Source of the DNA: a virus
Lineage: Duplodnaviria > Heunggongvirae > Uroviricota > Caudoviricetes
IMG/VR virus record: IMGVR_UViG_2711768017_000019
Direction: 5' to 3' (one strand)
Length of the DNA stretch: 33,726 nt
Numbering within the stretch: the first letter of the stretch is position 1; each line of letters begins with the position of its first letter. The translations under genes were made by a program, and so were the position numbers. A model generated the notes under the pieces. The model made no database searches, was not told the DNA's origin, and worked only from the letters and a program-made list of their open reading frames with translations. Below, piece after piece: positions 4,495 through 33,726 of the stretch.

Positions 4495-7400
4495 TCAACG
4501 AATACTGATGCCGGAAGCCGCTTTTTTGGTCACAATCACCGTACAGTCGGTGATATTGCCTGCCCCCTGATTGCCTTTCTGGAAAATCTTAAACTCCAGA
4601 GTGACGCTACCACCACCACTAGGCATATCAATAACTGCACTGTAACTACCGGGAATGGCACCTTTAGTTTCTCTGGATGCGATTAATACGCCGTTTTTGC
4701 GAACTTCAAAACCATAACCCGTGTATCGCGTGCCTCCTGGGTTATTTCCGCTCCCCGGATCGTCATACGCTATACCGTTAAAAATAATGGGCGGAATAAT
4801 AATCTGGCGGTCAAAGTTATGATCATCGCTGATGGTGACTGTAACCGTACCGTCTGGTGTTTCCGTGTTACCCCACGTACCGACTTTTTTCGGGAAGGCT
4901 TTTGATACAGCTTTAACGAAATCCCCTCTGACCTGGGTCGCCTCCAGCATGCCCTTAATCGTACAGTTCTGGTTAATCGTGACATTGTTGAGCGTTCCTG
5001 AGTTCGCATTCACACTACCACTGATATCCGCATTTTTAGCGGTCAGCTTTCCGTCTGATGTCAGGGAAAATACCGGAGGACTGCCACCGCTGGTAATGGC
5101 GGGGGCTGTCAGGCGCTTCAGGAACACGTCGTTCATGAATATCTGGTTGCCCTGCGCCACAAACATCGGCGTTTCATTCCCGTTTGCCGGGTCAATAAAC
5201 GCGATACGATTGGCGGCAACCAGAAACTGGCTCAGCTTGCCTTCCTCCGTGTCCTCCATGCTGAGGCCAATACCCGCGACATAATGTTTGCCGTCTTTGG
5301 TCTGCTCAATTTTGACGCCCCACATCGCATTCCATTTATCGTTAGCGTCCTTCCACTCTTTCGAAAACTCATCCAGTCTGCTGGCGTTATCCTCCGTCAG
5401 ATCAACTTTTTCCAGCAGCTCTTTACCGAGATGGGATTCGGTTATCTTGCCTTTGAAAAAATCCAGGTAACCTTCCGCATCATCGCTCGCCCGACCGACA
5501 GCCTCCACGAATGCTGATTTGCCGACGGTGTTCACACTGCGGATATAAAAGTAATAATCATGGCCCGGTTTGATATTGATACTGGCGGCTATCCAGTACA
5601 GCCCCGCGCCAAGGTAGCGGGCTGTGGTTTCAACCTGCCTGATATCGGTAATCCGCGTTTCCGAGAACCAGAACTCAAACTGTACCGTCGGGTCATAAAC
5701 CGCAAGATGCGGCGTGGCAGTTATCTGAAAATAGCCCGGCGTCAGCTCAATCCGCGACGGTGCTACCGGTGCGGCAATCCTGAACGATACCGACGCCGGA
5801 TCGCCCTGCTGTCCCCAGGCATTTACCGCCCGGACTGTCAGCGTGTACCGTCCCAGCGCCAGTTGCGTGAAGCGGTATGTGGTTTCCGTCGTCCGGGCCG
5901 TGCTGACCAGCCGCTCACTGCCGTCATCCGCTGCCACGGTCAGGCGAAGCATAAAGCTCACCCCCTTCACCACCTTCGGCGTGTCCCAGCGCGCCAGCAC
6001 CTGATATTCCCCGCTGTCTGCGGTGACTTCGGCAGTCAGGTGCTGCACCGCTGGCGGCGTGACACCATTCACCGTGCCGCTCTGGTCGCCGTCAAAGTGC
6101 GCCCCGTTATCCACGATGGCTTCTTTTTCCGGTACATGCTGCACGGCAGTGATGGCATACGTGCCGTCATCGTTCTCACGGATACTCACACAGCGGAACA
6201 GGCGCTGGCGCAACGTCGGCAGCTTCAGCCCCCACACGCTGTATTCAGCAACGCCGTCAGGAACACGGCTCACTTTCACCTTCACGCCGTCGGTGACGGA
6301 CTGAACCTCCACGCTGACCGGATTGCCACTTCCGTCAACCAGGCTTATCAGCATGGTACCGGAGGATGGCAGCGTGATTTCACGGTCGAGCGTCAGCGTC
6401 CGGGTCTGGCTGTTTACCGCCAGCACGCGCCCGCCGATGCTGATACCCGCATAGTCATCATCACAGATTTCAATGACATCGCCCGGCACATGGCGAAGCC
6501 CTTCTGCGCCCACGCTGAAGTCCACGGTCTGCGTTTCCAGCAGTTCTGTTTTAATCAGCCACAGCCCGGCGCGGTGTGCCTGCCCCCGGCTGGTACAGCC
6601 AAAAGCATCCATCTTCGTGACGTTACGACCGTAACGGGCAATGGCCTGCGTATCCTCCACAAGCTCTGTCGCCGTCTCCCAGCCGTTATCCGGGTCAATC
6701 CAGTTCACCTCAACGGCATTATGGCGGTCTTTCAGGGCGCTGAAGCTGTAGCGGAACGGCGCGCCATCATCCGGCATCACCACATTACTGCGGTTATAGG
6801 TCCACACCTTATCCGACGGTCGGTCCTGCACGAACGTCAGCGTCTGCCCGTTCCATACCGGCATACAGCGCCCATTTGTCCACATCCGCCGCACCAAGAC
6901 GTTTCCCCATGCCGTAGCGCGGGTGGGTCAGCATATCCCACAGACACCAGGCCATGTTGTTGCTGTATGCCGGTATGGAACGGGCAGACGCTGACGTTCG
7001 TGCAGGACCGACCGTCGGATAAGGTGTGGACCTATAACCGCAGTAATGTGGTGATGCCGGATGATGGCGCGCCGTTCCGCTACAGCTTCAGCGCCCTGAA
7101 AGACCGCCATAATGCCGTTAGCGCTGTATGCCGGTTTTAACGTTCCGTCCCAGATACCGCTGTATTGTCGCGTCTGCGGGTTATAGTTCGACGGCACCTG
7201 CAGAATGCGCCCGCGAAGATGATAATTACGACTCACCTGCTGGCTGCCGAACTGCTCCGAGTCCACCTGTACGCCGACCAGTGCAGTGTTCGGGTAGCAC
7301 TGTTTCACATCGATGATTTCGGTGTATGACGACCAGAGCGTTTTGTTCTGCAGCTGGTCTGTGGTGCTGTCTGGTGTCATCCTGCGCATCCGGATACTGA

Positions 7401-21901: not shown

Positions 21902-23212
21902 TTAAATCCGAAGTGATGTGACTCTTCCGGTCGGTTTGACAATAGGGAATTGCTTAACGATGAAATAACCTCCGGCATCATTCGGGTGATCATTGCCAGA
22001 TTTTTTATCAGGCTCCCCCTTCTCATCCCAGACCTGTTGCTCCAGAGATTCGGCATATAACGGGCAACGCTTCACATTAACTTTATAGCGACGCTCACCA
22101 TTGGCATTGCAGAACATTGCATTCATTGAGTTAACGCGATCTTTTACTGGCGGGTTCGAGCTGTTCACCACAACGTTAAAACCAGCCTGCTTAAGCTGGG
22201 CTATATCCGTCGTACTTGCGTTACTTGATTTTCTGGAATCCCCGGAAGCATCTGGATAAATATAAATTTCCCTCACTTTCCGGTAATCATTCCCATCATA
22301 CAGCCAGAAGCGTTCTTTAATGATGCGGATCATATCCGGCGTATCGTAGGCATTGATGATTTCAGTTACCGCACATGGAAGCCCCAAACGCAGCACATGG
22401 ACGATTCCCGCCATCTTTCCAACGTTAAAATCCATCCCAATATAAATCGGCTCCCCTGGCTGCTCCACTTCTTCGCAATTATTCAGTTTCCGGTCAAACT
22501 GATGGTAAACAGTACCACTTGTCAGGTTAGTAAACTGTCCTCGAAGATAGGCTTTAATCAGCTCTGGAGGGTATGATTCAAGAAGCGAAGGAATGTAATC
22601 TGCTGGCAGGTTCTTTTCATTATCGAAAGTAGATGCCTGCACCAGACCATACAGTGAGGCCAGCTCTGTTTTTTCACGCACGGCTTTAACAAACTGCTCG
22701 TAGACAAATTTGAATCCTTCCGGCGTGGTTGTAACGTCAATACCGTTGCGAAGTCCATCAATCTTATAACGCATACGTGCAATTATCTTGCGCCACGCCG
22801 TTCTGGCTTTTTCCTTCGGCAAAATGTCCAGTTCATCCACCAACGCATTACCAATTTTGAAACCGACGATCGTTTGTGGCTTCTCCATCGATCTGCAGAT
22901 AGTGGTTCCCCGATACTGGCGTCCGTAATAAAAGTGAACCTCTTTATTTCCCTCATTAATTTTTACGTTCAATCCCCAGTCAGCAGCAACTTCTTCCACT
23001 GTAGGGTAAAAAATATCGCGAATTTGGGGATACGTTGGCGCAAAATATCCCTGATTTATACCTGGATGCTCCCAAATCCCCTTGCATATGCCGCCACACC
23101 CAACCCATGTTTTGCCCGAGCCAAAACCAGCAATATAGGCTTTAAATTTATGGGGCATTGAAAGAAATCGCGCCTGAGGCACATTAAGCGTCGGAGAGAT
23201 CATCTTCATCAC
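21902..23212 (-). CDS. Terminase large subunit
   Basis: 436-aa ORF with Walker A-like motif (AGFGSGKTW) near the N-terminus and acidic nuclease-type C-terminal region. Confidence 0.85.
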   Translation of the reverse strand: MMKMISPTLNVPQARFLSMPHKFKAYIAGFGSGKTWVGCGGICKGIWEHPGINQGYFAPTYPQIRDIFYPTVEEVAADWGLNVKINEGNKEVHFYYGRQYRGTTICRSMEKPQTIVGFKIGNALVDELDILPKEKARTAWRKIIARMRYKIDGLRNGIDVTTTPEGFKFVYEQFVKAVREKTELASLYGLVQASTFDNEKNLPADYIPSLLESYPPELIKAYLRGQFTNLTSGTVYHQFDRKLNNCEEVEQPGEPIYIGMDFNVGKMAGIVHVLRLGLPCAVTEIINAYDTPDMIRIIKERFWLYDGNDYRKVREIYIYPDASGDSRKSSNASTTDIAQLKQAGFNVVVNSSNPPVKDRVNSMNAMFCNANGERRYKVNVKRCPLYAESLEQQVWDEKGEPDKKSGNDHPNDAGGYFIVKQFPIVKPTGRVTSLRI

Positions 23213-24278
23213 TCCTTACTCTGGCATCAACCACATTAATATTGATCGCCACAGGCTGGGGATGTTCATTATCTTCCACCGTTTCGATCTCTTTGCGCAG
23301 CTTCTGGTTTTCCATTCTGCGCCGTTCAATTTCCAGTTCCCGTAGCCGCTTATCTGCACATAAAGCCCCGCCAGCAGAAAACAAACGCAACAATTCACGC
23401 CGGGCGGCAGCCTTATCCTCCAGCAGGATCTCAACGCCGAATTTTCCGAATTTTGCCCCTGCATATAATTGCCGCGCATCCCCATCAAGCAGAGTGGTAT
23501 CAGCCATATAAAGCTGTCCCGTTCCCTCACCGCAGCACTTCGGGCAGTCCGGATTGGGTATGGCGTTATCAACAAAGCCGAGGCCTCCATATTCCGGTTC
23601 GGGTTTGCCATCTCTGGAAGCCTGCGCCGCTGCCTTGTCGAATTCTGCTATATCGCGCCACTGGTAGAGATGATTCTCGCCCCAGCAATAACGGCAGTTA
23701 ACACGGCGAAATTGTGCAAGCTGATTGGGGTCGGCCAGGACAATAGCCATCAACTGACTCACTAGTAAATCCAGGTCTGCGGTATAGCGTTTCTGGTACT
23801 GATTGCGGAAGTAGCTGATAGCGCGAAAAACCCTGGCATTTCTAAGCATACGACTGGCGTTGCTGTTAGCTGTCGCACCTTGCCCCTCATAACCGGCTAG
23901 TCGGTACGCCTCTGTCGGCTTTTTACCCTGAGCAACAAGCATCGCAAACTTAGCCTGCTGGTCAGAAATGCCGAATTCATCGGGACAGAACGAAAATTCC
24001 TCCGCGTCGCCCTCATTCAGGCCCGCATCGAATACTGGCTTTTTTTCCTGAGATTTTTCGTTCCGCTTTTGTGCAGTCTGCGCAGATTTTTTCTGCGCAC
24101 TTTTTTGCGCAGTTTTGCACATTTCTGTCTGCGCATTTTTCGGAGTTTTTTTGATGTAACGACGGGCTGTTGCGTAATTCAGTCCCCTTGCTTCACACCA
24201 TGCCACCGGAGATATACCGGAGCGGGTGTATTCAGCAATATACTCCTGCTGCAACGCCCCCCAGTCCGGTCTGCTCAT
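23184..24278 (-). CDS. Terminase small subunit (putative DNA-packaging protein with N-terminal HTH)
   Basis: 364-aa ORF directly upstream of and overlapping terminase large; N-terminal HTH-like segment, Lys/Gln-rich linker, CPKCCGEG Cys cluster. Confidence 0.5.
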   Translation of the reverse strand: MSRPDWGALQQEYIAEYTRSGISPVAWCEARGLNYATARRYIKKTPKNAQTEMCKTAQKSAQKKSAQTAQKRNEKSQEKKPVFDAGLNEGDAEEFSFCPDEFGISDQQAKFAMLVAQGKKPTEAYRLAGYEGQGATANSNASRMLRNARVFRAISYFRNQYQKRYTADLDLLVSQLMAIVLADPNQLAQFRRVNCRYCWGENHLYQWRDIAEFDKAAAQASRDGKPEPEYGGLGFVDNAIPNPDCPKCCGEGTGQLYMADTTLLDGDARQLYAGAKFGKFGVEILLEDKAAARRELLRLFSAGGALCADKRLRELEIERRRMENQKLRKEIETVEDNEHPQPVAININVVDARVRSDEDDLSDA

Positions 24279-24281
24279 CAG

Positions 24282-24533
24282 TTAGTCCTGATTTTTATCC
24301 ACCCTGAGTAGTTCGCGCAGAGCAAAGGCATCCCCTTTTCTGGCAAGCTTAAACAATGCCGCTCGTAACTCGGCTTCACCTTTCGCTCTGCCCTTACGGA
24401 TGGCCGCATAAAAATCTGTCATTGCTTCCCGATTTTCTTTCAGTCGGTTCAGATCAACATCCAGAACGTCAGCGATTTGTTGTGCAGTCATCCGGCACGC
24501 TGCCAGAGACTCGACTTTCGAATACGGAATCAT
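24282..24533 (-). CDS. Small hypothetical protein (start uncertain; possibly the internal Met at about 24491)
   Basis: 83-aa basic ORF between the glycosyltransferase-like gene and terminase small; the track start overlaps the upstream gene by 65 bp. Confidence 0.35.
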   Translation of the reverse strand: MIPYSKVESLAACRMTAQQIADVLDVDLNRLKENREAMTDFYAAIRKGRAKGEAELRAALFKLARKGDAFALRELLRVDKNQD

Positions 24534-25419
24534 TTGTCACCCCCATTGATATGCAGGGTGTCTTCTTCCTGTATTTTTCGTGAAGGATTTTTACTGCAGC
24601 GTTGTTCCAGGTGACCTGATGGTGAATGCGTTTATGACTGGCACCCATAAGTGAGATTTTTACGCACGACGGCGCATACATGACGGAGTAAAAACTTTTA
24701 ACGTAGGTTCCGGAATCCAGATACAGCTCGGTCATTCCGCCGCTGTTTTTCTGCGTCTGTTTCTGCCCTAACTGGACAGCACCGATCGTCATAAACAATT
24801 CACCACAGCGACCGAGATTCGTGTACGTATTCACATCCTCGTTAATGCGCCCCATGAATGAGAACGGTCGATCAACCGAACAGATAAAGCTGTTCATTGC
24901 CTTGCGTTTCACCCACGAAGCATGGCCGCCATTGTCACCAAGAAAATCCCCGCCCTGCGACATAGCGATGGAAAGAGCAGGTATTGATTCGTAGTACGCA
25001 AGCATTTCAGAAAGGATCTCATCCAGTTTCCTTATCGGGAAATAGGCCTGGTCATAGTTGCGATCCACCCGAAACTGGAACTCGTGATAATCATCATCGA
25101 GCTGAATGAAGTATTTACACCCGACCAGTTTTGCCTGGTCGAAACAGGCATTACGGGCGTAAAAAATTGAGCGGCGGTCACTAAAATTATCGGCTTCGTC
25201 AAAACGACTAGCAATATCGGCTTTGGAAAATACCAGCACCTGTTCACCAAATTCAGCCATGTACTGATGCCGTGTCTTATCTTCATCATCAACAACGATA
25301 AAAATTTTCCCGGTATAGCCAGCACGACGCAACGTCCGGTAAGTCAGAACTTTGTCCGGTCGCCCGTGAGTCAGAATAAAGGCGCAAAAATCATCACGCA
25401 TATTCCTCCTCCCCGCCAT
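24469..25419 (-). CDS. GT-A-like (family-2-type) glycosyltransferase, soluble, function unknown
   Basis: 316-aa ORF. N-terminus AFILTHGRPDKV...GKIFIVVDDEDKT fits the GT2 signature and IQLDDDYHEF is a DXD-like motif; no predicted TM segments. Overlaps the ParB-like gene by 26 bp. Confidence 0.45.
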   Translation of the reverse strand: MAGRRNMRDDFCAFILTHGRPDKVLTYRTLRRAGYTGKIFIVVDDEDKTRHQYMAEFGEQVLVFSKADIASRFDEADNFSDRRSIFYARNACFDQAKLVGCKYFIQLDDDYHEFQFRVDRNYDQAYFPIRKLDEILSEMLAYYESIPALSIAMSQGGDFLGDNGGHASWVKRKAMNSFICSVDRPFSFMGRINEDVNTYTNLGRCGELFMTIGAVQLGQKQTQKNSGGMTELYLDSGTYVKSFYSVMYAPSCVKISLMGASHKRIHHQVTWNNAAVKILHEKYRKKTPCISMGVTNDSVFESRVSGSVPDDCTTNR

Positions 25420-26182
25420 GCATGATCTCCACCATGCGCTGCGTCATTCGGACAAATCCATTTTCAATAGCCTGCTGATAATCAATGATCACCAGCGCCG
25501 ACTCCTCGAAAAGGCACTGAATTTCAGCGGGGGCATGAGCGTAATAGTCCGCAATTCTGCTGAAATTAAACACCGTGTGACGTTCTGCTGCACACAGGAG
25601 GAATTTCTCAATATCAGGATCAAGGGACGCCGAACGTATCCGGCTGATCAGCTCCTGAGTTTTCGTATCGTCGTACAGTTCACTGATATCCGGTTTACCG
25701 CCTGACGGCTCATAAACAGGCGTATCAATTTTCGTCGTATACGGCTCCTCCTCATTTCCTGTACCGGGCAAAACATCCGTCAACAGTTCATCAATTTCTG
25801 CCGGGATGAAGCCTGTCAGGGAGACATCAAAATCAGCATTGATTAGGTCCGACAGCTCCATCCGCAACAGATCTTCATCCCAGCCAGCATTCATCGGCAG
25901 GCGATTATCTGCCAGGCGGTACGCCTTTTTCTGCTCATCCGTCAGGCCAGACAGAACAATGACCGGAACAGAATCCATTTTGAGCATTTCAGCCGCCATA
26001 ACACGACCGTGACCCGCAATAATTTCGCCCTTTTCGTCAATCAGCACCGGATTAGTCCAGCCGAATTGCTTAATACTTTCTACCAGTTGTGCCACCTGCT
26101 CAGTACTGTGCGTCCTGGCGTTGTGCGCATACGGTGACAATTCTTGTAATGGGCGATAGACTATCTTTAATTTCTCGCTCAT
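25394..26182 (-). CDS. ParB/Srx-like nuclease-domain protein
   Basis: 262-aa ORF with ParB N-terminal-type motif (...NPVLIDEKGEIIAGHGRVMAA...); ATG with AAGG RBS. Confidence 0.65.
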   Translation of the reverse strand: MSEKLKIVYRPLQELSPYAHNARTHSTEQVAQLVESIKQFGWTNPVLIDEKGEIIAGHGRVMAAEMLKMDSVPVIVLSGLTDEQKKAYRLADNRLPMNAGWDEDLLRMELSDLINADFDVSLTGFIPAEIDELLTDVLPGTGNEEEPYTTKIDTPVYEPSGGKPDISELYDDTKTQELISRIRSASLDPDIEKFLLCAAERHTVFNFSRIADYYAHAPAEIQCLFEESALVIIDYQQAIENGFVRMTQRMVEIMHGGEEEYA

Positions 26183-26319
26183 ACAGCCTTGCTTTATGAA
26201 TAAAACGCACCCCAGCAGCCAGTGCTACTGGGGGCGGAGGTGTTGCTGGTAAAGTTAGGTATTGGATCAATGAGTGAGTCAACATAATATTAAACTCACA
26301 ATTATAAATCAGCCATATA

Positions 26320-27795
26320 TTAGGAGCGCCAAAAAAAACCTGAAAACAATATAATAACAGGATAAATTTCAAGGCGACCAAGAATCATAGCTATGCACAT
26401 TAAATATTTTGCAATGTCATTAAGCACTCCGAATGACGATGCAGTAGCCCCAAAACCTAATCCCATATTATTAATACATGCAGCCACTGTTGCAAATGAT
26501 GTAAGAAAATCATATCCCATACCATTTAACACCAGTATAAAAAACACCGTGAAGAGAGTATAAAGAAAAAAGAAACTCCATACAGACCTCATTACACGAT
26601 CTGTAACTATCTTCCCTCCTACATTTACACTCAACAACGCTCTGGGATGAGAAAGCTGATTTATCTCGTGTTTGCTTTGTTTGAAAAGTATAAGAAATCG
26701 AAGTGACTTAATTCCACCACAGGTTGAACCTATACATCCCCCAAAGAAACTTGACAACAGCAAAAACACTATCGTGTGCGTGGGCCAGTTTGCATAATCC
26801 TGCGTAGCTAAACCATTATCAGTGAGCATGGAGCTGGCAAGAAAAAACGAATGAATAAAACTTCCATGCAAGTCATACATACCTATATGCCAGACCTGGA
26901 AAGAGGTAACAATGATCACCCCTAAGGCTATTAACAGAAAGAAACGAAGTTCAATATCTCTGATTAAAGGTTTTATCGTTTTTCTGCTAATAACAATATA
27001 CCAAAGAGTGAAGTTGAAAGCCGATAGCAGGGAAAAAGAACCAGCCACCAGCTCAACCAAATAGTTATTAAAATATCCGATACTCTCGCTATGAGTTGAG
27101 AAACCACCAAGCGAAACTGTGGAAATCCCGTGACAAATAGCATCAAACAAAGGCATTCCTGCAAGTCTATAACAGACAATACAAGCAATACCTAATAAAG
27201 AATAAGTTATCCACAGTGTCCGTGACGTATCGGCCAGGCGGGGAGTGAGTTTGTCATCCTTAAATGGCCCCGGCATTTCTGACTGATAAAGCTTTGCACC
27301 ACCAATACCCAATAATGGCAATACTGCAACCGCCAGAACAATAACTCCTAAACCACCTATAAAATTTAACTGTGACCGATAGTACAAATATGCCCGAGGT
27401 AATGAACTAACATCATCAATTACAGTTGCTCCTGTTGTTGTTATTCCAGAAACCCCTTCAAACAGAGCATCAATGAACGTTAAATTAAGTTCTGAGTCAA
27501 TCCATAAAGGGAATGCACTAATAACAGAAAACAAAATCCAAAACATTACAATTATAATAAACCCATCACGGGTACGTAATTGAATGCCAGATTTCTTAGT
27601 TGTATACCACGCTCCGCCACCAATGCAAAAAAATATAACGAAAGTTATAAAGAAAACGAACAGGCTTTTTTCTTTATAAAACAATGCTACAACCATTGGT
27701 GGCAACATTGAAAGACTATAGAGCCAAACCAGGAACCCACACATATGAGTAACAACTCTTACATGAGATGTATTCATATCTAAATATTCTTTCAA
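26320..27795 (-). CDS. trkG: TrkG/TrkH-family potassium uptake protein
   Basis: 491-aa polytopic membrane protein matching the E. coli Rac-prophage TrkG (MNTSHVRVVTHMCGFLVWLYS...); strongly AT-rich relative to flanking phage genes. Confidence 0.85.
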   Translation of the reverse strand: MKEYLDMNTSHVRVVTHMCGFLVWLYSLSMLPPMVVALFYKEKSLFVFFITFVIFFCIGGGAWYTTKKSGIQLRTRDGFIIIVMFWILFSVISAFPLWIDSELNLTFIDALFEGVSGITTTGATVIDDVSSLPRAYLYYRSQLNFIGGLGVIVLAVAVLPLLGIGGAKLYQSEMPGPFKDDKLTPRLADTSRTLWITYSLLGIACIVCYRLAGMPLFDAICHGISTVSLGGFSTHSESIGYFNNYLVELVAGSFSLLSAFNFTLWYIVISRKTIKPLIRDIELRFFLLIALGVIIVTSFQVWHIGMYDLHGSFIHSFFLASSMLTDNGLATQDYANWPTHTIVFLLLSSFFGGCIGSTCGGIKSLRFLILFKQSKHEINQLSHPRALLSVNVGGKIVTDRVMRSVWSFFFLYTLFTVFFILVLNGMGYDFLTSFATVAACINNMGLGFGATASSFGVLNDIAKYLMCIAMILGRLEIYPVIILFSGFFWRS

Positions 27796-27914: not shown

Positions 27915-28220
27915 TTACTTTAAACACTGCTCGGTTATGTATTGCTGAGCACCTTCAAGTTGGGCCTGCATCATTACCAGTCGTTCCCGGAGGGTGAAAT
28001 AATCCCGTTCAGCGGTGTCTGCCAGTCGGGGGGAGGCTGCATTATCCACGCCGGAGGCGGTGGTGGCTTCACGCACTGACTGACAGACTGCTTTGATGTG
28101 CAACCGACGACGACCAGCGGCAACATCATCACGCAGAGCATCATTTTCAGCTTTCGCATCAGCTAACTCCTTCGTGTATTTTGCATCGAGCGCAGCAACA
28201 TCACGCTGACGCATCTGCAT
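27915..28220 (-). pseudogene. Rz (i-spanin) remnant lacking the N-terminal membrane anchor
   Basis: MQMRQRDVAALDAKYTKELADAKAENDALRDDVAAGRRRLHIKAVCQSVREATTASGVDNAASPRLADTAERDYFTLRERL... matches the C-terminal two thirds of lambda Rz; the frame upstream hits a TAA at the deletion junction (about 28235-28250). Confidence 0.7.
27974..28159 (-). CDS. Rz1 (o-spanin lipoprotein) embedded in the +1 frame of Rz
   Basis: 61-aa ORF MRKLKMMLCVMMLPLVVVGCTSKQSVSQCVKPPPPPAWIMQPPPDWQTPLNGIISP... with lipobox VVGC and Pro-rich body, lambda Rz1-like. Confidence 0.75.
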   Translation of the reverse strand: MRKLKMMLCVMMLPLVVVGCTSKQSVSQCVKPPPPPAWIMQPPPDWQTPLNGIISPSGNDW

Positions 28221-28249
28221 GTCAGTAATTGCCGCGTTACTGAAACCGT

Positions 28250-28660
28250 TTATGGATTACATCGACATGCGCCTTTGATATCGCCCTGGTTTATTTTGCG
28301 AAGAAGCGTCGATGTTCTGAAATTGCCAGCACCCACGTTGTAAACGAATGAGTAAAGAGCGCCGCGCGTTGTTTCCGGTATATCGACTTTGATGTACGGG
28401 TTAATTTGTCTGGCGACAGTGGCAAGGTCTTTATTCAAGAGTGTTTTGCATTCTGCTTTGGTATACGTTTTACCGAGCATGATGTCTTTTCCTGTATGCC
28501 CGTGACATACAGTCCATACACCAACAATATCTTTGTATGGTATGTAGCTGACACCTTCCAGACCATCGTTACCACTTGGGCCAGTGATTAACACTGATGC
28601 TATAGCAATTGCTCCGCCACCAATAGCAGCAGCAACGACTTTTCGTAATGATGGAGGCAT
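28250..28660 (-). CDS. SAR endolysin (phage 21 R-like lysozyme), C-terminally truncated
   Basis: 136-aa [61 protein letters not shown]... (SAR domain plus lysozyme core). Ends ...IKGACRCNP* where R21 continues about 29 aa further; start overlaps the holin stop. Confidence 0.75.
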
Positions 28661-33332: not shown

Positions 33333-33373
33333 TTGACATAACCCTCCAAAAGATGCATTTTTAATGCATGTTT
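33333..33373 (+). promoter_or_regulatory. Candidate promoter (consensus -35 TTGACA) with overlapping NsrR-type palindrome
   Basis: TTGACA at 33333-33338; AAGATGCATTTTTAATGCATGTT at 33350-33372 resembles the NsrR box (AAGATGCATTT half-sites); GGAGGAGGTGG RBS follows. Confidence 0.4.
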
Positions 33374-33726
33374 TGGAGGAGGTGGTTATGACACACAAGA
33401 GAATTCCTAAAGATTGGGTAATCAAACGCTCAACTCCGTTCTTCACAAAAGAGAACGTACCTTCAGCGTTATTAACACATCATAATACAGCAGCAGGTGT
33501 TTTTGGGCAGTTGTGCGTAATGGAAGGCACTGTAACATATTATGGTTTTACTGATGAGAATGCTACTGAACCGGAGATAAAAGTAGTCATTAATGCTGGC
33601 GCTTTTGCAACAAGCCCACCACAATACTGGCACCGTGTTGAACTAAGCGATGATGCTCAGTTTAATATTAACTTTTGGGTCGCTCCAGACTTTTCGGGCG
33701 AAAAAGTCTATAGCACCAAAAAATAG
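33364..33726 (+). CDS. YeaR-like DUF1971-family protein (probable true start ATG at 33388)
   Basis: TPFF.K...P...H.T..GV...L.VM.G.V.Y.G..DE...EP.......AG.FA..PP..WH.....D..FNI.F.VAP pattern shared with E. coli YeaR as remembered; strong RBS before the ATG at 33388; ORF ends at the window edge with a stop. Confidence 0.55.
   Translation: MHVLEEVVMTHKRIPKDWVIKRSTPFFTKENVPSALLTHHNTAAGVFGQLCVMEGTVTYYGFTDENATEPEIKVVINAGAFATSPPQYWHRVELSDDAQFNINFWVAPDFSGEKVYSTKK

Follow-up and report, generated by a model that had tools for sequence, protein, structure and literature searches.

The TET-associated glycosyltransferase (TAGT) of phages T2 and T6, a beta-glucosyl-HMC-alpha-glucosyltransferase, acts on hydroxyls linked to DNA (PMC13216743), and the GT-A enzymes associated with 5mYOX do likewise (bioRxiv 10.1101/2023.12.21.572611). 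ParB, terminase and clamp genes are frequent neighbors of these 5mYOX/TET-associated phage glycosyltransferases, and an R...DDD...ED active-site pattern has been reported both for phage GT-A enzymes that glycosylate 5-hydroxymethylcytosine (5hmC) in DNA and for the trypanosome base-J glucosyltransferase (JGT; bioRxiv 10.1101/2023.12.21.572611). In the same survey approximately 65% of approximately 25,000 glycosyltransferase contigs had no 5mYOX or ThyS neighbor and were set aside as 'less likely' DNA modifiers (bioRxiv 10.1101/2023.12.21.572611), and in 2026 TAGT homologs without an alpha-glucosyltransferase (alpha-GT) or beta-glucosyltransferase (beta-GT) were counted in 288 of 753 phage genomes, with solitary TAGTs flagged as unexplained (PMC13216743). 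Here we analyze a stretch of 33,726 nucleotides (nt; IMG/VR record IMGVR_UViG_2711768017_000019, referred to below as the window), an Escherichia coli Rac-type lambdoid prophage, in which a gene for a ParB/Srx-family protein (the partner) is followed directly by a TAGT gene. This pair is a self-contained two-gene viral module, conserved across viruses and proviruses of many bacterial phyla and archaea.

The downstream gene of the pair (24469-25401 on the minus strand, 310 amino acids [aa] when translated from M7; the longest open reading frame [ORF] reaches 25419 and encodes 316 aa) matches PF20691, the TAGT family, with an E value of 4e-34 and 118.8 bits against a cut-off of 27.5; residues 14-228 align with profile positions 4-205 of 205. 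The protein contains KIFIVVDDEDKT and FIQLDDDYHEF, and the R...DDD...ED pattern is formed by R89, D108-D110 and E194-D195, the DDD (25090-25098, minus strand) being the DXD metal and nucleoside diphosphate (NDP)-sugar motif. In the alignments D47, R89, K173, N193, D195, H266 and H267 are invariant, D108-D110 are invariant among 16 homologs and nearly so among 77, and E194 is nearly invariant (16-sequence alignment). Because of the family match and this conserved pattern, we regard the glycosyltransferase fold as established, confirming the point that the original prediction, a reading of the sequence alone, had singled out in advance as decisive. That reading had described the enzyme as 'GT2-like' with a DXD motif; a soluble GT-A fold with a DXD was borne out, and the family is TAGT rather than GT2. 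Neither protein of the pair has a transmembrane segment (peak Kyte-Doolittle 19-residue means of 1.08 for the TAGT and 1.25 for the partner), in agreement with the earlier view that the enzyme is unlikely to be of the Gtr type. RefSeq labels it 'GREB1-related protein' or 'hypothetical'. In a 50%-clustered library the enzyme has 1325 representatives (493 at E<=1e-30), and it has no sequence match in NCBIfam, PADLOC or PDB.

With the T2/T6 enzyme the protein shares the TAGT family, the GT-A fold, the DXD and the PHROG (phrog_842, named 'beta-glucosyl-HMC-alpha-glucosyltransferase' after T2/T6). Unlike the T2/T6 enzyme, it sits in a temperate lambdoid prophage, always has a partner with the C-terminal domain described below, and is accompanied by no 5hmC pathway: alpha-GT, beta-GT, 5hmC-pathway and deoxycytidine monophosphate hydroxymethylase genes are all lacking from the Rac prophage. 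The sequence relationship is marginal. No T2 or T6 record is among 40 tblastn hits at E<=1e-3 from 50,697 phage records, the T4-like Aeromonas phage 65 matches the TAGT at only 23% identity (E 8e-5), and a structural match in BFVD to the T-even-type PKO111 enzyme has an E value of 1.6e-7 at 14% identity. We therefore consider the T2/T6 function label on these genes an over-transfer of annotation. The 5mYOX/TET-associated glycosyltransferases and JGT have the same active-site pattern as the enzyme studied here; their 5hmC or 5-hydroxymethyluracil (5hmU) is made by a neighboring dioxygenase or hydroxymethylase, and there is none at this locus.

The upstream gene (25394-26182, minus strand; 'ynaK' or ParB/Srx family protein in RefSeq) encodes 262 aa, and both ORFs of the pair are present as first described, on the minus strand, with the motifs then cited present in the translations. 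The N-terminal domain of the partner (residues approximately 1-138; 25769-26182, minus strand) has the ParB/Srx fold that had been assigned to it (PF02195 ParB_N, E 8.7e-7; phrog_620, E 1.7e-90); relative to Spo0J, box II reads GHGR for GERR and box III reads DN for EN; the phosphate-binding Arg and Asn of the two boxes are kept. The accompanying label 'nuclease' gained no support from the analysis, which did not look at nuclease motifs. This ParB_N belongs to the subtype that occurs in fusions with phage DNA methyltransferases (phrog_498, E 6e-51; PADLOC MTase_II, E 1.5e-38). In PADLOC the partner matches only the ParB_N part of a methyltransferase model, and neither the TAGT nor the 83-aa ORF downstream of it has a match; we rejected a component of a known defense system as a reading. 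Nucleotide specificity within the ParB/Srx fold is not predictable from sequence alone (PMC12704722). We rejected a partition ParB, because TIGR00180 scores 38.1 against a cut-off of 58.45 and covers residues 11-94 only, with no helix-turn-helix (HTH) and no dimerization domain; no parA gene is present in the window or the Rac prophage. In strain EC2, PGAP calls the intact 262-aa partner gene a truncated ynaK pseudogene, apparently because the K-12 ynaK fragment serves as the reference.

The association of the two genes was surveyed from the TAGT side by a profile search (16-sequence alignment) over one genome per GTDB species, which yielded 80 loci spanning Enterobacterales, Bacteroidota, Firmicutes (including Veillonella and Clostridia), Verrucomicrobiota, Acidobacteriota, Desulfobacterota, Saccharibacteria and archaeal metagenome-assembled genomes. 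A partner homolog lies directly upstream of the TAGT gene on the same strand in 77 of these loci, mostly with an overlap of 4-44 nt, and in each of the other three the TAGT gene is at a contig edge. Outside the enterobacteria, TAGT identity to the query is 43-59% in these loci; between E. coli prophages and Bacteroidota, Firmicutes, Saccharibacteria, Methanosphaera and Haloarcula virus HHTV-2 it is 43-57%. What is constant in the partner is its C-terminal domain (the C-domain; residues approximately 146-250, approximately 110 aa; 25433-25747, minus strand), which only one of the 77 testable loci lacks, whereas approximately eight loci with ample upstream sequence have no ParB_N (L092, L107, L112, L113, L132, L141 and L158 lack it). 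The C-domain, not ParB_N, is thus the constant partner of this TAGT clade. The original prediction was right that the ParB-like protein is coupled with the glycosyltransferase, but the part that is conserved is this domain, which it had missed.

Searches from the C-domain side gave the same picture. A profile search of 5.8 billion proteins returned mostly stand-alone proteins of approximately 130 aa without a Pfam domain, on whose contigs the order is C-domain then TAGT, or PolA-TAGT-C-domain-TAGT; 191-kb Vibrio phages have a 139-aa C-domain ORF ahead of the TAGT. In IMG/VR, a TAGT gene was found downstream of the C-domain in 43 of 43 diverse loci, adjacent in 37 of the 42 with room. The pair is also carried by Lactobacillus gasseri phage phi jlb1 (order ParB-TAGT-TerS-TerL-portal), by L. 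delbrueckii phages c5, LL-Ku, phiLdb, Ld17 and PMBT4, by Nocardia phage NTR1 and by the haloarchaeal virus HHTV-2 (genes 21 and 22); in c5, a virulent phage of 31.8 kb and 50 genes, it forms ORF1 and ORF2, directly after cos. Among 5426 complete E. coli genomes, module DNA occurs in 1580 and is near full length in 867 (approximately 16%), and all 80 E. coli-type IMG/VR loci have the two ORFs intact. Given the many homologs, the wide presence in E. coli and this intactness, the ORFs are not chance.

Degraded copies are also seen. The partner gene of E. coli K-12 (records H100-H107) is reduced to its first 254 nt (ynaK; window 25929-26182), which are joined to ydaY, the K-12 Rac deletion having taken the C-domain, the TAGT, the terminase and the head genes. 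Approximately 700 further genomes hold shorter remnants with varied end points.

All invariant columns of a 39-sequence, multi-phylum partner alignment fall within the C-domain. They lie in an extended segment, YTxKIxxPxYEP, in which Y148, P155 and Y157 are invariant (the PxY is found in 72 of 73 C-domains, and the PxY(E)P motif reads PVYEP here, at 25706-25720 on the minus strand), and in a helical core, AAxRHxVFNYxKIAEYYAH...Q.LME.SALVIID..AI.NG, with L195, R201, F205, A211, Y214, Q222, E226, L230 and D234 invariant. The AF2 model of this domain is poor; the predicted local distance difference test score is below 50 over residues 137-169, and disorder is predicted for the motif segment taken by itself. 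Mean pairwise identity is 44% for the C-domain, 29% for ParB_N and 50% for the TAGT, and median isoelectric points (pI) are 4.45 for the C-domain and 8.6 for the TAGT. A mirror-tree comparison of pairwise identities gave r 0.55 for TAGT and C-domain and 0.39 for TAGT and ParB_N (0.27 versus 0.12 without close pairs), correlations that are suggestive yet too weak to serve as evidence of contact. Consecutive pairs in locus L141 (6472-8918; C-domain, TAGT, C-domain, TAGT) provide a further observation: the first C-domain lacks YTxKI and retains YYEP, which suggests that each enzyme has its own cognate partner.

The C-domain has no Pfam family and no PDB relative. We dismissed a PDB match to the FadA adhesin (E 0.002) as helical-composition noise and judged a weak match to PF23887 (phage L5 gp47-like), seen in nine of 35 members with a best E of 0.0035, to be uninformative; N-terminal extensions of approximately 180 aa in P0269, P0302 and P0312 are not the C-domain. 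Fusions of ParB_N or of the C-domain to the TAGT occur once each among 502 retrieved proteins (P0222 and P0081) and are probably read-through or frameshift products.

Three described systems in which a ParB-fold protein accompanies a DNA-modifying enzyme resemble this arrangement. ParB176 activates the phage thymine dioxygenase 5mYOX176 and is needed only on double-stranded DNA (PMC13229309). Like ParB176, which is encoded beside a post-replicative DNA-modifying enzyme, the partner joins a ParB nucleotide-binding domain through a linker to a C-terminal domain, has no HTH, and is encoded near the terminase beside the enzyme that it would serve; the pairing with the TAGT holds in both locus surveys (77/80 and 43/43). 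Unlike ParB176, its effector is a glycosyltransferase, its linker bears the invariant PxYEP (the ParB176 linker is described as non-conserved), and the C-domain can occur without ParB_N. The second system comprises the fusions of ParB_N to DNA methyltransferases in 'ParB-terminase (Tls) loci' (PMC4738411, PMC12704722), which have the same ParB_N subtype and the same place upstream of terminase, whereas the enzyme here is separate, transfers a sugar and is bridged by a dedicated C-domain; the 'ParB-terminase locus' was earlier predicted to modify DNA at packaging (PMC4738411; PMC8256090). In the third, DpdB, a ParB-fold NTPase with an alpha-helical C-domain, works with DpdA, and DpdA-DNA stimulates the DpdB ATPase (PMC10164549); DpdB has a positively charged DNA tunnel and serves base exchange, in contrast to the acidic partner and glycosyl transfer considered here.

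The genes around the pair belong largely to DNA metabolism and packaging. Downstream are recurrent terminase and portal families of several unrelated types; terminase genes follow within one to three genes in most loci, the pair usually heads the terminase or late operon, and the families of the small and large terminase subunits (TerS and TerL) vary between loci while the pair is constant. Upstream, the 114 neighbors in the 80 loci (among them SSB, VRR-NUC, DNA polymerase A, N6/N4 methyltransferase and lysis genes) include no family present in more than three. In loci without ParB_N the pair often lies among replication genes, immediately preceded by DNA polymerase A or a primase-helicase, and a sliding-clamp (DnaN-like) gene flanks it in some replication-type loci. 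Within flanks of 8 kb on either side, C5 DNA methyltransferases occur in eight loci and N6/N4 DNA methyltransferases in seven.

Around this core the accessory content varies in ways that involve carbohydrate chemistry. TAGT genes or domains are in tandem in L112, L136, L140, L141 and L150 and in proteins P0266 and P0268, and the TAGT is fused to a class I S-adenosylmethionine (SAM) methyltransferase (P0248, P0252 and L140:3581-5275) or to a sulfotransferase (P0290); P0278 is also listed among the fusion and tandem-domain proteins. A SAM methyltransferase is fused ahead of ParB_N in L111:189-1739, and genes for an NDP-sugar epimerase/dehydratase and a sugar-1-phosphate nucleotidyltransferase adjoin the pair in L100. 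Five loci (L223, L233, L236 [5314-6300], L241 and L244) have a bifunctional His_Phos_1 plus cytidylyltransferase-like gene between the partner and the TAGT, which appears fused to the partner in L231:4578-6260 and may make a special nucleotide-activated donor. Taken together, this variation points to a real sugar chemistry and its diversification.

The distribution of the module constrains what the enzyme can act on. Because nearly the same TAGT occurs in hosts with unrelated envelopes, archaea included, the acceptor must be universal rather than a host-specific surface polymer, and therefore either a nucleic acid or the co-encoded partner. Among these we favor DNA, because characterized members of the family act on DNA-linked hydroxyls, because the ParB_N subtype is one that attaches to DNA methyltransferases, because the position is that of the 'ParB-terminase locus', already predicted to modify DNA, because ParB-fold partners of DNA-modifying enzymes have experimental precedent, and because gene order with terminase or replication genes is kept; the complementary charge of C-domain and TAGT also counts for it. 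With confidence and doubt about evenly balanced, we thus propose that the module carries out partner-activated, post-replicative glycosylation of phage DNA for counter-defense. In such a mechanism the C-domain would dock the basic TAGT, most likely through the PxYEP peptide, and ParB_N, where present, would be an NTP-dependent switch or clamp that loads or activates the TAGT on double-stranded phage DNA, by analogy with the ParB proteins of thymine dioxygenases and with DpdB and DpdA. With an NDP-sugar as donor, the TAGT would then glycosylate phage DNA after its replication and ahead of packaging, so that the packaged genome would be shielded from restriction or other DNA-targeting defenses in the next host; additional TAGTs, the fused SAM-methyltransferase and sulfotransferase domains and the nearby NDP-sugar genes may elaborate or change the sugar.

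Several observations weigh against DNA as the acceptor, the most serious being that nothing at these loci supplies a hydroxyl. No TET/JBP enzyme, ThyA-like hydroxymethylase or other acceptor-making enzyme is present in the window or the whole Rac prophage; no TET/JBP or thymidylate-synthase-like family is in the top 25 families of the 114 upstream neighbors, although rare cases are possible; and the complete phage c5 genome has no hydroxylase or hydroxymethylase by annotation, although unannotated small genes are possible. To our knowledge, the DNA glycosyltransferases of this fold that have been characterized all act on a hydroxyl, carried by 5hmC, by 5hmU or by an attached sugar. With no hydroxymethyl-pyrimidine pathway, the DNA acceptor would have to be a canonical base, the backbone or DNA ends, which would mean new chemistry, or a host-made modification. 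It is possible, though we think it doubtful, that the partner lets the TAGT glycosylate DNA without a hydroxymethyl-pyrimidine, on a canonical base (for example, by N-glycosylation of an exocyclic amine), the backbone or the ends. On the same side of the balance are the properties of the partner, which is acidic (pI 4.5, net charge -24) and has no recognizable DNA-binding domain (dioxygenase-associated ParBs likewise have none), in which the catalytic Glu of the ParB GERR box is His (Asn in many homologs), and whose ParB_N is dispensable in approximately 10% of lineages. We found no published nucleoside analysis for any phage with the module. The proposal of DNA glycosylation made originally therefore stands in part: TAGT membership, a methyltransferase-type ParB_N, gene order and the precedents of ParB partners (PMC13229309, PMC10164549) argue for it, and the lack of an acceptor-making enzyme argues against.

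That same lack is accommodated by the main rival explanation, protein glycosylation, in which the TAGT modifies its own partner (for example, at the invariant PxYEP Tyr, in the manner of glycogenin) or another phage or host protein, with the ParB-fold domain as a regulated carrier. The C-domain is the only non-nucleic-acid component always found with the TAGT and hence the simplest universal acceptor, and the invariant Y148 and Y157 lie in a segment predicted to be disordered. There is also a report of protein modification within the family, from animal GREB1, a TAGT-domain protein said to O-GlcNAcylate (attach O-linked N-acetylglucosamine to) estrogen receptor alpha (PMC7968844); GREB1 is a very large eukaryotic protein, and the link to the E. 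coli TAGT assessed here is a shared Pfam family. We nevertheless consider protein glycosylation unlikely, since the helical core (R201, Y214, Q222, E226 and D234) is conserved as much as the peptide, which fits a folded binding or regulatory subunit better than an acceptor tag; moreover, the gene context is one of DNA replication, packaging and DNA methyltransferases, the ParB_N subtype is that fused to DNA methyltransferases, and a phage gains no obvious benefit from a glycosylated ParB-like protein.

The remaining readings are less likely than protein glycosylation. If the requirement for a universal acceptor and the missing hydroxyl of canonical DNA are both taken at face value, the TAGT might glycosylate RNA (queuosine, a tRNA base with a hydroxyl, is one example), a nucleotide or a defense signaling molecule. 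ParB-fold domains do bind a variety of NTPs, and some lineages have them fused with RNA-related domains (PMC12704722). A context of DNA replication, packaging and methylation, with no RNA-binding or tRNA-related neighbors, makes a non-DNA target of this kind very unlikely. Queuosine in particular is not universal in archaea.

The position of the module bears on a packaging role, which had been offered originally as an alternative and in which the ParB-like protein would mark or organize DNA for terminase (in a pac/cos-like or partition-like manner), the glycosyltransferase being an unrelated passenger. The module is immediately upstream of TerS and TerL in the window, where an 83-aa ORF resembling a small terminase subunit follows it, terminase is close by in most other loci, and in phage c5 the pair comes right after the cos site. 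However, the pairing with TAGT is near-absolute and that with terminase is not: the approximately eight loci without ParB_N include several among replication genes, beside DNA polymerase A or a DnaN-like gene rather than terminase, and TerS and TerL families change while the pair does not. With a partner that lacks the HTH and dimerization domains of ParB, has no ParA and scores 38 against 58 for TIGR00180, a packaging accessory is weakened to a slim prospect. Slimmer still, to the point of being hardly credible, is lysogenic conversion of a cell-envelope glycan (TarP-like or Gtr-like) giving superinfection exclusion, since Gtr-type proteins are membrane proteins encoded beside the attachment site and the TAGT has no hydrophobic segment or signal peptide and lies between lysis and terminase genes, heading the terminase (late) block rather than being placed like a lysogeny gene or a moron (a terminator of its own closes the adjacent trkG moron), and since the pair occurs in virulent phage c5 and the same enzyme in Gram-negative, Gram-positive and archaeal hosts with unrelated envelopes.

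The genes of interest in the window are all on the minus strand, in the order (5' to 3') lysis genes, trkG moron, partner gene, TAGT, 83-aa ORF, TerS, TerL, portal, and head and tail genes, and the window matches the Rac region of strain EC2, whose genes include recET, kilR, sieB, ydaSTUV, trkG and ynaK, at 99.8-100% identity. The trkG potassium-transporter moron (26320-27795, minus strand) has a low GC content (0.38-0.40 versus approximately 0.48 in the flanks), and its hairpin terminator (26210-26233, minus strand; a 10-bp stem, then a T run) lies 27 nt upstream of the partner start codon. The overlap of 26 nt noted originally (25394-25419) is correct for the longest ORFs of partner and TAGT, but the real overlap is likely to be 8 nt (ATGCGTGA) and the TAGT 310 aa, as in RefSeq, because every homolog begins at the equivalent of M7 (MRDDF...) and a Shine-Dalgarno sequence, GGAGGAGG, lies 5' of the M7 ATG (25401). 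Whichever start is real, the two genes are translationally coupled.

At its other end, the last approximately 20 aa of the TAGT are an extension of the Escherichia and Shigella copies, missing in all other aligned homologs, and the overlap of 65 nt with the next ORF (24469-24533) falls within it. That ORF is the small basic one expected to follow (24282-24533, minus strand; 83 aa, pI 9.25), which matches phrog_309 (E 8e-23) and resembles a segment of small terminase subunits; because homologs occur in only eight of the 80 loci, it is outside the conserved core, and it has no PADLOC match. RefSeq uses a later ATG for it (69 aa), the longer form having the better Shine-Dalgarno sequence. Next come TerS, as had also been recognized (23184-24278, minus strand; PF03592, phrog_51), and TerL (21902-23212, minus strand; PF03237, PF17289). 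Elsewhere in the window, approximately 214 nt are missing relative to EC2 at the lysozyme/Rz junction (27915-28660; junction at 28238/28261), leaving a lysozyme ORF of 136 aa (165 aa in RrrD) and an Rz-like ORF of 101 aa (154 aa in RzpD), and this prophage copy is therefore probably lysis-defective. A DUF1971 (TehB-like) ORF at 33364-33726 on the plus strand, between the nin-region and the replication genes, reaches the final base of the window.

The TAGT family and its GT-A fold were already known, as was the loose association between phage glycosyltransferases and ParB and terminase genes. What appears to be new is the near-absolute coupling of a TAGT clade to an undescribed domain, together with an optional ParB_N, a consistent lack of acceptor-generating enzymes and a distribution over bacteria and archaea. 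A full-text literature search found no paper describing the pair of TAGT and C-domain, and a 2025 survey of the ParB-CTPase fold makes no mention of glycosyltransferases (PMC12704722). Because a dedicated partner domain, described in no database, is always present, this 'solitary' TAGT clade is not really solitary.

The genes of the window are typical representatives of a prophage module common in E. coli, one that is widespread and experimentally very accessible, and the module is readily testable because E. coli K-12 is a natural deletion of it. For a 'solitary' TAGT, a Rac-type prophage of E. coli is the most tractable setting at hand. If the target is DNA, the module would provide a route to glycosylation without a hydroxymethyl precursor, with a bearing on phage counter-defense, on restriction barriers (in phage therapy and cloning) and on enzymatic DNA labeling; were canonical DNA to be glycosylated, the modification would belong to a chemical class new for DNA, and it would be encoded by approximately 16% of complete E. 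coli genomes as well as by viruses of many bacterial phyla and of archaea. If the target is instead the partner protein, the pair would be a new viral protein glycosylation switch built on the ParB fold. With either target, the module would widen the emerging theme of ParB-fold proteins that activate nucleic-acid-modifying enzymes.

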